A stretch of 64,000 nucleotides of DNA, taken from the NCBI GenBank assembly GCA_043821365.1, contig JBDRCX010000006.1:160001-224000 (forward strand), given 5' to 3'. The notes under the pieces are model-generated. The model saw nothing but the letters and a program-made list of their open reading frames with translations, was not told the origin of the DNA and did not search any database. The translations under genes were made by a program, and so were the position numbers. The DNA comes from Candidatus Micrarchaeota archaeon (GTDB lineage: Archaea > Micrarchaeota > Micrarchaeia > Anstonellales > Bilamarchaeaceae). Below, piece after piece: positions 14,129 to 21,175 of the stretch; the stretch's first letter is position 1; every line of letters starts with the position of its first letter.

Positions 14129-14163
14129 TACCAAAAAATTAGTAGCTACCTATATATAGGTAG
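14129..14163. promoter_or_regulatory. Tandem operator-like sites upstream of the rib operon, second site overlapping the TATA box
   Basis: TACCAAAAAATTAGTAG (14129-14145) and TACCTATATATAGGTAG (14147-14163); CTACCTATATATAGGTAG at 14146-14163 is a perfect palindrome. Confidence 0.7.
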
Positions 14164-14178
14164 AGCTACCACATCACT

Positions 14179-14805
14179 ATGAATTTTATGATTACAAATG
14201 CATTAGCCAAACTTAAGAAAGGCAAATTCGTCATAGTTTATGATGGAGATGAAAGAGAAGGAGAAGCAGATCTTGTCCTCCCGGCAAAATATATTACACC
14301 GGAAAAAATACGAATAATGAGAAAGGATGGTGGGGGACTTGTATGCACTGCAATAGAGAAAAAAGATGCGGATAAAATTGGCTTGCCTTTTTTCACTGAC
14401 CTTATAGAGAAAATTAAATTATCAAAAATGACTTGTAAAAAAACAGCATATGGCGACAAACCAGCATTTTCAATACCTGTGAATCATTGCAGGGTTTATA
14501 CTGGAATAACAGATAATGATAGGGCCCTTACAATAAAACAATTAGACGAAATTATAACAAAAAAACCAGAAAGATTCAAACGTGAATTTTACACACCAGG
14601 CCATGTGTTTTTGTTAATTGGACGGGGATTGAAAAATCGAAGAGGACACACCGAACTTGCTTTAGAATTAGGTAAACGTACAGGGTTTAGAGTGATGGTT
14701 CTTTGTGAAATGCTTGGAAACGGCAAAGCACTTTCCAAAAAGGATGTGAAAGCTTATGCAAAAGAACATGGAATTGATTTTATCGAGGGAAAGGATGTGG
14801 TTTGA
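14179..14805 (+). CDS. ribB: 3,4-dihydroxy-2-butanone 4-phosphate synthase
   Basis: DGDEREGEAD, GGGLVC, GITDNDRA, PGHV, RRGHTE, CEM. Confidence 0.93.
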   Translation: MNFMITNALAKLKKGKFVIVYDGDEREGEADLVLPAKYITPEKIRIMRKDGGGLVCTAIEKKDADKIGLPFFTDLIEKIKLSKMTCKKTAYGDKPAFSIPVNHCRVYTGITDNDRALTIKQLDEIITKKPERFKREFYTPGHVFLLIGRGLKNRRGHTELALELGKRTGFRVMVLCEMLGNGKALSKKDVKAYAKEHGIDFIEGKDVV

Positions 14806-15692
14806 TGGTAAAAATTGCAATAATTGATACGACATTTTCAAGAGTAGATATGGGTGAAATCGCGATAGATGAATTGAAAAAACATCCAAACATGGAAGTA
14901 GAACGAAAAACTGTCCCTGGAATAAAGGATCTCCCAGTAGAATGCAAAAAACTTCTTGAGTCTGGTTGTGATATTGCAATGGCACTTGGGATGGTTGGTG
15001 GTGCAGACATAGATACACAATGCGGTCATGAAGCTTCAATTGGAATCCAGCAAGCCAAACTAATGACAAATAAGCACATAATAGAGGTTTTTATTCATGA
15101 AAACGAAAGCTGGAGTGAGGATGGATTAAAGGAGATTTTTGAAAATAGAATCAGAAAACACGTCCAAAATGCAGTGATACTTGCAACAAATCCAGAAGAA
15201 CTTGAAAAGAATGCGGGAAAAGGAATTAGACAAGGCAAAAATGATGAAGGTAGTTTGTCAAATAAAAAACAGATAATCTTGGGGGTTGTTGTGTCTGAGT
15301 TTAATGATGAGATAACTGAACAAATGGAAGAGAAGGCAATTGGATTGTTAAATGAAGAGGGGATTTCAGCTAAGATAGTTCATGTCCCAGGTGTATACGA
15401 CATGCCACTTGTGGTGAAAAAACTTCTTATGGAGAAAAAAATTGATGGAGTTGTTACTTTAGGTGCTGTTGTAAAAGGAGAAACAGGGCATGATGAAGTG
15501 ATAACAAAAGATGTTGCAAAAAGATTGGGAGACCTTTCATTAGAATTCAGAAAACCAGTGACTCTCGGCATAATAGGGCATAATGCAGAATTAGAAATGG
15601 CAGAAGAAAGAGCAGAAGACTACACAGAACGTGCGATTAGATCAGCGATATATTTGATCAAAATACTTAGGGATGATATTAATGATAACTAA
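14805..15692 (+). CDS. ribC-ribH: Fused archaeal riboflavin synthase and lumazine synthase
   Basis: N half: DTTFSRVDMG, TVPGIKDLPV, CGHEAS, GIRQG. C half: VSEFN, VPGVYDMP, GAVVKGETGHD, PVTLGI. No stop between them. Confidence 0.9.
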   Translation: MVKIAIIDTTFSRVDMGEIAIDELKKHPNMEVERKTVPGIKDLPVECKKLLESGCDIAMALGMVGGADIDTQCGHEASIGIQQAKLMTNKHIIEVFIHENESWSEDGLKEIFENRIRKHVQNAVILATNPEELEKNAGKGIRQGKNDEGSLSNKKQIILGVVVSEFNDEITEQMEEKAIGLLNEEGISAKIVHVPGVYDMPLVVKKLLMEKKIDGVVTLGAVVKGETGHDEVITKDVAKRLGDLSLEFRKPVTLGIIGHNAELEMAEERAEDYTERAIRSAIYLIKILRDDINDN

Positions 15693-16260
15693 AGCAGCTG
15701 AAGCTTCATTACCAACACAGTATGGAAATTTTAGAGTGCATGCATTTGTAGACAAAGACGGGAGAGAACATTTAGCTCTTGTTAGATGTGAACACAAGTC
15801 ACACAATGGATTACCAGTTAGAGTCCATTCAAAATGTCTGACTGGAGACACACTCACATCCCTCAAATGCGATTGTCGTGCGCAACTAAAAGCATCAATG
15901 AAATACATAGAAAGAAACAAATGTGGGATACTTATTTACCTTGACCAGGAAGGGAGAGGTATAGGACTTGTAAATAAAATAAAGGCTTATGCTTTGCAAG
16001 AGAAGGGGATGGATACTGTCGAAGCAAATGTTCACCTTGGATTTCAAGAAGACATGAGAGACTTTTCTATTGCATCAGACATACTAGAATGTTTTGGGAT
16101 AACTGAAATTGCACTTATGACAAATAATCCAGAAAAAATACAACAGATTGAAAAACATGGTATAAAAGTAATAAAGAGGATCCCGATCATAATCAAAGCA
16201 AACAAGCACAATAAAAAATATCTTGAAACTAAAAAACAAAAAATGAAGCATATGTTGTGA
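15682..16260 (+). CDS. ribA: GTP cyclohydrolase II (bacterial type)
   Basis: RVHSKCLTGD...CDC, QEGRGIGL, DTVEAN, MTNNPEK; start taken as ATG 15682. Confidence 0.93.
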   Translation: MITKAAEASLPTQYGNFRVHAFVDKDGREHLALVRCEHKSHNGLPVRVHSKCLTGDTLTSLKCDCRAQLKASMKYIERNKCGILIYLDQEGRGIGLVNKIKAYALQEKGMDTVEANVHLGFQEDMRDFSIASDILECFGITEIALMTNNPEKIQQIEKHGIKVIKRIPIIIKANKHNKKYLETKKQKMKHML

Positions 16261-16264
16261 TTTT

Positions 16265-17359
16265 ATGAATGATTATATGGAATTGGCAATATCATTGGCA
16301 AAAAAAGCCAGTCCATCACCCAATCCGCAAGTTGGGGCAGTTTTAGTAAGGAAAGATGAAATAATAGGGCAGGGTGTTCACAAAAAAGCAGGAACCCCAC
16401 ACGCAGAAATAGAAGCAATCAAAGATGCCATCAGAAGAAAACATGACACCGTTGGATCGGTATTGTATGTAAATTTAGAACCATGTCCACACAACGACAA
16501 AAGGACTCCGCCTTGTGTTCCTACAATAATAAAAGCAGGCATACGAAAAGTTGTTTGTGCGATGAAAGATCCAAACCCAAAAGTAAACGGGAAGGGGATA
16601 GATGCTCTGAGAAATGCAGGAATTTTGGTTACTGTTGGAGTGATGGAAAACGAAGCAAGAACACTGAACGAAATCTACATTAAACAAATAACAAAGAATC
16701 TCCCATTCATAACAATGAAAGTTGCTATGAGCCTTGATGGTAAAATCGCCACAAGAACTGGGGACTCGAAATGGATATCCTGTGAAGCATCACGAAGATT
16801 GGTTGCAGAGATTAGAAACAGATATGATGGAGTTATGGTAGGTATAGGAACAATATTGAAAGATAATCCCAGGCTTACTTGTAGAATGAAAGGTGGTAAG
16901 GACCCAGTAAGAATCATTATTGATTCGAAACTTAGAATCCCGCTTGACGCAAATGTTCTGAAACGGGCAAATGAGATGGTAGTAATTGGCTGTGGAAATG
17001 AATTCGACAAAAAGAAGAAAATCAAATTAGAAAAAATGGGTGTTAAAGTTTTTGTAAATCCTCAGGAAGATAATGAAGTTGATTTGAAAAAATTAATGGA
17101 AAAACTAGCAAAGATAAATGTGAGATCAGTATTGCTTGAGGGCGGAAGTGCACTTGACGGTGCAATGGTTGATGCTAAATTGGTAGATAAATTTTCGATT
17201 TTTGTTGCCCCTAAAATAATTGGAGGGCAAGATGCAAAAGGACCAATAGGCGGAATAGGAACAGCATTAGTAAAAAACTCAATTAGATTAAAAAATCTAA
17301 AAGTTGAACAAATTGGTTCTGATTATTTTTTTGAAGGGTATGCAGAATATAAAAATTAA
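16265..17359 (+). CDS. ribD: Bifunctional pyrimidine deaminase/reductase (bacterial type)
   Basis: PNPQVGAV, HAE, LEPC...TPPC, AMSLDGKIA, EGG. Confidence 0.95.
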   Translation: MNDYMELAISLAKKASPSPNPQVGAVLVRKDEIIGQGVHKKAGTPHAEIEAIKDAIRRKHDTVGSVLYVNLEPCPHNDKRTPPCVPTIIKAGIRKVVCAMKDPNPKVNGKGIDALRNAGILVTVGVMENEARTLNEIYIKQITKNLPFITMKVAMSLDGKIATRTGDSKWISCEASRRLVAEIRNRYDGVMVGIGTILKDNPRLTCRMKGGKDPVRIIIDSKLRIPLDANVLKRANEMVVIGCGNEFDKKKKIKLEKMGVKVFVNPQEDNEVDLKKLMEKLAKINVRSVLLEGGSALDGAMVDAKLVDKFSIFVAPKIIGGQDAKGPIGGIGTALVKNSIRLKNLKVEQIGSDYFFEGYAEYKN

Positions 17360-21158: not shown

Positions 21159-21175
21159 TACCAATTAATTTGTAG
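21159..21175. promoter_or_regulatory. Operator-like site immediately before rbkR
   Basis: TACCAATTAATTTGTAG has the same TACC-N8-NGTAG form as the two rib-operon sites. Confidence 0.65.

Follow-up and report, generated by a model that had tools for sequence, protein, structure and literature searches.

The genome of a Candidatus Micrarchaeota archaeon (family Bilamarchaeaceae) encodes full-length archaeal riboflavin synthase (RibC) joined to full-length 6,7-dimethyl-8-ribityllumazine synthase (RibH, LS) in one polypeptide. The gene lies in a stretch of 64,000 nucleotides, referred to here as the window, where a single open frame begins with the ATG at 14805 (a TTG at 14802 is likewise open) and closes with the TAA at 15692 (Table 1). 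This is an uncharacterised domain architecture, present family-wide and made of two well-known enzymes, those of the final two steps in vitamin B2 synthesis. With considerable confidence, the protein is interpreted as a bifunctional RibC::RibH created by loss of a stop codon, with two predicted activities and an assembly of paired rings that we infer from the behaviour of both folds.

The original prediction placed RibC and its paralog RibH in one polypeptide and proposed a domain search, which bore it out with profile matches to both enzymes over their full length. Both halves pass the curated equivalog cut-offs: NCBIfam TIGR01506 (ribC_arch) aligns with residues 3-150 at 214.3 bits (cut-off 100.55 bits; profile positions 1-150 of 151), and TIGR00114 (lumazine synthase) with residues 159-288 at 137.7 bits (cut-off 84.6 bits; profile positions 3-135 of 138). 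Pfam PF00885 (DMRL_synthase) finds two matches in the open reading frame (ORF), and the RibH half scores 163.9 bits. Inspection of the RibC-RibH junction in the window sequence found neither a stop nor a frameshift. The RibC domain ends in its conserved C-terminal tail, AGKGIRQGxxDEG, and is separated from the RibH domain by about 8-10 residues; the linker is RibC tail plus RibH head and nothing else. Across 89 fused sequences the length of this linker is narrowly conserved and its sequence freely variable; the anchor glycines G149 and G160 stand 10 residues apart in 58 of the 89 and 9-12 apart in 80. This narrow length range may stem from descent from a single ancestor instead of from constraint.

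The gene belongs to the Micrarchaeota rib operon, which consists of ribB, ribC::ribH, ribA and ribD. The genes are tightly packed: the TGA of ribB shares a base with the ATG of the fusion, and the last 20 nt of the fusion ORF overlap the start (ATG) of ribA. In the segment from 15673 to 17359, a bacterial-type RibA and a fused RibD accompany the archaeal-type RibC, in place of the archaeal ArfA/ArfB/ArfC route. Two TACC-N9-GTAG sites precede ribB, one of them the palindrome TACCTATATATAGGTAG, and a third was located at 21159-21175; the window thus contains 3 distinct sites, against 0.65 expected by chance. These sites are candidates for a putative operator of the rib operon.

Table 1. Features of the rib operon and of the fused gene (positions in the window)
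Feature	Position	Strand	Basis or remark
Two TACC-N9-GTAG sites	14129..14163	.	abutting, just upstream of ribB; candidate rib operator
ribB (DHBP synthase)	14179..14805	+	PF00926 176 bits, TIGR00506
ribC::ribH fusion ORF	14805..15692	+	295 aa (295 codons) + stop; homologs match full length
RibC domain, archaeal pentameric riboflavin synthase	14811..15254	+	residues 3-150; TIGR01506
Junction/linker	15255..15278	+	residues 151-158, SLSNKKQI
RibH domain, 6,7-dimethyl-8-ribityllumazine synthase	15279..15668	+	residues 159-288; TIGR00114, PF00885
ribA (GTP cyclohydrolase II, bacterial type)	15673..16260	+	PF00925 213 bits
ribD (bacterial-type fused deaminase/reductase)	16265..17359	+	TIGR00326 350 bits

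Judged by their sequences, both the RibC and the RibH half look active. The N-terminal half aligns with the Methanocaldococcus jannaschii riboflavin synthase 2B98 (E 4.7e-48; chain residues 4-153 of 156; identity about 56-57%), and this alignment takes in the conserved C-terminal AGKGLRQG tail. The original prediction had stated that the motifs of both enzymes are retained; indeed, they are invariant in the 89 fused sequences, whose pairwise identity falls to 33-37% in each half. In RibC these motifs are TVPGxKD, CxHExS, HExE and AGxGxRQG, and every invariant column of this half (F11, TVPG36-39, K41, D42, C73, H75, E76, S78, E101, R115, H119 and AGxGxRQG137-144) is identical in 2B98. In RibH, the invariant residues F166, H229 and R269 align to F22, H88 and R127 of the Aquifex aeolicus enzyme; in bacterial lumazine synthases, Phe22, His88 and Arg127 (A. 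aeolicus/B. subtilis numbering) are the stacking, acid-base and phosphate-binding residues. The RibH half also has the short alpha4-alpha5 loop of the archaeal type. An AlphaFold2 monomer model built on the 89 fused sequences (mean pLDDT 92.6, pTM 0.74) contains two well-folded flavodoxin-like domains, which a coil at 137-157 connects; pLDDT is lower in the linker, and the pTM of the model only hints at a defined arrangement of the domains. By Foldseek, the N-terminal half of the model superposes on 2B98 (TM 0.95, rmsd 1.1 A) and the C-terminal half on lumazine synthases (TM 0.84-0.87), and no solved chain covering both halves was found.

It is accordingly hard to credit that one of the halves is a degenerate, non-catalytic scaffold. 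The RibH half is the more divergent of the two, with a mean pairwise identity of 59% against 69% for RibC, which is nothing specific in favour of such a role, and split gene pairs show the same kind of RibH/RibC divergence asymmetry. The catalytic residues, by contrast, are invariant in both halves. Moreover, the full rib operon is kept, yet a search of the organism's own genome (1.2 Mb, 87% complete) for an extra ribH, ribC or ribE copy returned neither a second PF00885 gene nor a bacterial RibE (PF00677). Both halves must therefore work, if the operon makes riboflavin.

The distribution of the fusion was surveyed, as had been proposed with the original prediction, and it proved to be family-wide. 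About 5.8 billion proteins were searched by word index, with 751 matches; the best 120 of these, which come from NCBI, JGI, ENA and Logan assemblies, are all 286-348 aa long and, at 60-77% identity, span 97-100% of the query, the closest among them being that of Ca. Bilamarchaeum dharawalense (77% identity). A six-frame search was conducted on 201 genomes of the phylum, 37 from the window's family (Bilamarchaeaceae-like) and 164 from other families. Within the family the gene is present in 30 of the 37 genomes, and in 28 of these 30 it is a single continuous ORF; the fused gene was not found in the 164 genomes of the other families. The search flagged a stop inside the gene in 4 of the 28 fused genomes, where the stop comes after the C-terminus in each, and in split-form genomes, where it falls exactly at the junction. 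Across the family, the fusion is retained at divergence down to about 54% identity.

One in-frame stop is all that separates the split relatives from the fused form, which is the one point in favour of a sequencing or assembly error that deleted the ribC stop in this genome. Against such an artefact stand the recurrence of the ORF throughout the family, the more than 100 distinct metagenome proteins that come from several sources and cover 97-100% of the query, and the fact that some identical fused proteins recur on many contigs. The family-wide distribution and the metagenome homologs together exclude a lost-stop artefact, whose probability is negligible.

In the phylum outside the window's family, ribC is followed directly by ribH as a separate gene. 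In the sister family, which belongs to the same taxonomic order, the two genes are in frame, with one stop between them and then 0-9 codons to the ribH start, as in the junction ...EDEGEIKG*NIMVKIAIIV... (asterisk, stop). This in-frame pair with its single stop, together with the adjacency seen elsewhere, makes loss of a stop codon between adjacent, translationally coupled ribC and ribH genes in the family ancestor the likely origin of the fusion. Comparison of genomes shows the fusion to be the derived form, shared across the family, of a ribC-ribH gene pair that is ancient and widespread. In a tree built from the concatenated RibC and RibH halves, with the linker left out, 19 fused family sequences form one clade (SH-aLRT 98) that adjoins the sister-family split pairs, and a single origin of the family clade is well supported by this topology. 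Overall, the tree allows up to 6 changes between fused and split forms, and its well-supported branches force only 1. Fused representatives outside the family clade include P0125 (labelled Woesearchaeota; 10 contigs) and P0126 (11 contigs), and the proteins P0121-P0128 are scattered in the tree. The fusion thus probably happened more than once, a reading that the well-supported branches do not force.

When one genome from each GTDB species was scanned, the best 80 loci comprised 11 fused Micrarchaeota, 1 fused Thermoplasmata metagenome-assembled genome (MAG) and 68 split ribC-ribH pairs, whose aligned halves lie 24-192 nt apart. The hosts of split pairs include methanogens (Methanosarcina, Methanoregula, Methanospirillum, Methanohalophilus and Methanomassiliicoccales) as well as Thermoplasmata, Thermoproteota, Hermodarchaeota and Aenigmat-, Woese- and Iainarchaeota. 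All 68 split loci among these best 80 are in frame, which reflects a ranking bias of joined tblastn matches; in the unbiased phylum sample from the six-frame search, about one third of the split pairs are in frame, as expected by chance, and in-frame adjacency was thus rejected as a special feature of the pair. In the Thermoplasmata MAG (L111), ribC and ribH are fused, and its two nearest relatives (L109 and L110) keep a stop at the same position; this locus arose either through a recent fusion of its own or through misassembly of the long-read MAG. Within the window's own family, one genome (G087) carries a split ribC-ribH locus, L028, which groups with the pairs of other families (SH-aLRT 99) outside the fused clade. 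This placement suggests that the gene pair was replaced there rather than that the fusion was reversed.

Another claim of the original prediction, that an in-frame TTG at 15255 preceded by GAAGGT could yield free RibH, did not survive comparison with relatives. The production of two proteins from this ORF, whether by internal initiation at that codon or by proteolysis, is very unlikely. Besides the TTG and the GAAGGT before it, the only point in its favour is that two relatives (L008 and L035) among the 22 other fused loci share the TTG. However, GAAGGT represents the Glu-Gly codons of the conserved DEG motif at the RibC C-terminus, and it ends only 3 nt upstream of the TTG. In roughly half of the 22 other fused loci, the linker is devoid of ATG, GTG and TTG; residue 151, which the TTG encodes, varies between I, V, L, A and F across homologs; and only 12 of 89 proteins have a Met in the linker. 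TTG 15255 was rejected as a RibH start on the basis of this codon comparison and these residue statistics, by which the ancestral ribH start is lost.

Lumazine synthase and archaeal riboflavin synthase both form their active sites at the interfaces between adjacent subunits of a pentamer, as seen in 1HQK- and 2B99-type structures; thus, both halves of the fusion would have to pentamerise. The RibH half is predicted to convert 5-amino-6-ribitylaminouracil and DHBP into 6,7-dimethyl-8-ribityllumazine. The RibC half would then dismutate two lumazines into riboflavin and the aminouracil, and the latter would return to the RibH half. Because riboflavin synthase gives back the substrate of lumazine synthase in this way, co-localisation at a 1:1 ratio would be a sensible benefit: the fusion would fix the stoichiometry and hold product and recycled substrate close together. 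As the tether is so short, the simplest assembly would consist of five chains forming two coaxial rings, with the RibC ring stacked on the outer face of the RibH ring. Alternatively, a RibH 60-mer capsid could carry twelve RibC pentamers on its outside at the five-fold axes, where they may sit over the five-fold channels.

The active sites of lumazine synthase face the side of the ring opposite the N-terminus. A RibC ring stacked at that terminus would thus not be adjacent to them, which argues against a direct tunnel, and proximity effects would rather be expected. It is plausible, as the original prediction proposed, that the fusion forms a stacked double pentamer and channels its substrate. 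Lumazine synthase exposes its termini on the outer face of pentamers and capsids alike and accepts fusions at its N-terminus (PMC7369331).

How far the physical link matters to the enzymes can be argued in two directions. The fusion might be a hard-wired, hitherto undescribed archaeal complex of lumazine and riboflavin synthases, either as RibC5-RibH5 double rings or as a RibC-capped RibH 60-mer, that passes lumazine on and recycles the aminouracil; this proposal is tentative and leans towards the unlikely. If it is true, the RibC and RibH encoded by the unfused pairs of methanogens and Thermoplasmata would assemble into the same complex without a covalent link, and the topology of the complex would be inverted relative to that of the Bacillus heavy riboflavin synthase. 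Alternatively, the loss of the stop may simply have been tolerated, leaving two independent enzymes on a flexible tether with neither special architecture nor channelling, a serious possibility if still a minority one. Split ribC-ribH pairs are the rule in archaea and work in most of them, in-frame adjacency occurs at about the chance rate, and the sporadic fusions elsewhere (the Thermoplasmata locus, P0125 and P0121-P0128) suggest an event that happens easily; a linker composed merely of the ends of the two proteins fits this as well. Neutrality is harder to reconcile with a family in which nearly all gene-bearing genomes are fused despite deep divergence and without reversion, or with a linker tight in length while its sequence varies. 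Furthermore, since both folds must pentamerise, the tethered domains cannot be fully independent.

The free RibC of M. jannaschii (MJ1184; 2B98/2B99) resembles the N-terminal half over its whole length, including the C-terminal tail and the fold; its chain stops after the tail, whereas that of the fusion runs straight into lumazine synthase. The C-terminal half, for its part, shares its fold and the equivalents of F22, H88 and R127 with lumazine synthases (A. aeolicus 1HQK and archaeal RibH), and, like other archaeal RibH proteins, it is without the N-terminal extension strand of bacterial enzymes. Unlike free RibH, it lacks its own start codon and is attached to RibC through its N-terminus.

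The bacterial heavy riboflavin synthase also brings these two consecutive enzymes into physical contact; in it, the LS60 capsid of B. subtilis encloses a riboflavin synthase trimer. Kis and Bacher are said to have described, in 1995, substrate channelling in that complex. However, the bacterial association is non-covalent and the archaeal one covalent; the bacterial partner is the unrelated trimeric RibE (PF00677), the gene family that marks the heavy complex and that the search of the window organism's genome (87% complete) did not find, whereas the riboflavin synthase of the fusion is RibC, a paralog of lumazine synthase. The position of the partner differs too: riboflavin synthase lies inside the bacterial capsid, but attachment at the N-terminus of lumazine synthase would place RibC outside.

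RibBA, the RibD deaminase-reductase and RbkR likewise join consecutive or related steps of riboflavin metabolism in one chain. These proteins combine unrelated folds, whereas RibC::RibH combines two paralogous folds that both form pentamers. Fused neighbours in the pathway, such as RibBA and RibD, are common. In fused riboflavin enzymes, the domains can work when separated (PMC13151069, PMC5397151). Engineered proteins provide further parallels. MscL-RS (4Y7J/4Y7K) shows that a coaxial partner can be fused to the RibC pentamer, and in the I53-40 cage (5IM5) this pentamer was used as a five-fold building block. MscL-RS, however, is artificial and fused at the N-terminus of riboflavin synthase, whereas the natural fusion is at its C-terminus.

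The original prediction held that this fusion was not known to have been characterised, and the searchable literature agrees: no description of a RibC-RibH fusion was found there, including in the Bilamarchaeum genome paper and its supplement, nor is one mentioned in the archaeal riboflavin regulon paper or a 2026 pathway review. Where the fused matches have a database name, it is 'riboflavin synthase [Candidatus Micrarchaeota archaeon]'; a similar single-activity name is attached to a 72-member cluster of the ESM Atlas. Hundreds of entries that carry just one of the two names, 'riboflavin synthase' or 'lumazine synthase', are thus predicted to be bifunctional, and pathway reconstructions for DPANN archaea could wrongly count one riboflavin step as missing.

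The pairing of lumazine synthase with riboflavin synthase is a classic example of associated, channelling enzymes and a mainstay of protein-cage engineering, all of it drawn from the bacterial capsid and its enclosed trimer. The fusion can be read as a 'Rosetta stone', which hints that archaeal RibC and RibH act together physically, and, going by the model, it may offer a ready-made two-tier pentameric building block. It is also a clear-cut case for evolutionary study, with fused and split forms side by side, essentially one stop codon apart.

Several related proteins depart from the common architecture. P0159 (316 aa), a single observation on one 1.6-kb Logan contig, has the reverse order, with a PRK12419-type lumazine synthase at residues 7-150 followed by an archaeal RibC at 159-312. 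P0212 (327 aa) is a tandem of two lumazine synthases, with two full TIGR00114 matches. In longer RibC/RibH proteins (P0134, P0137, P0138 and others), Pfam partner domains beyond PF00885 were not found. Finally, in the fused proteins P0014, P0084 and that of genome G180, the loop behind helix 2 is extended after RibC residue 52 by about 15 inserted residues rich in Gly, Pro and Ala.
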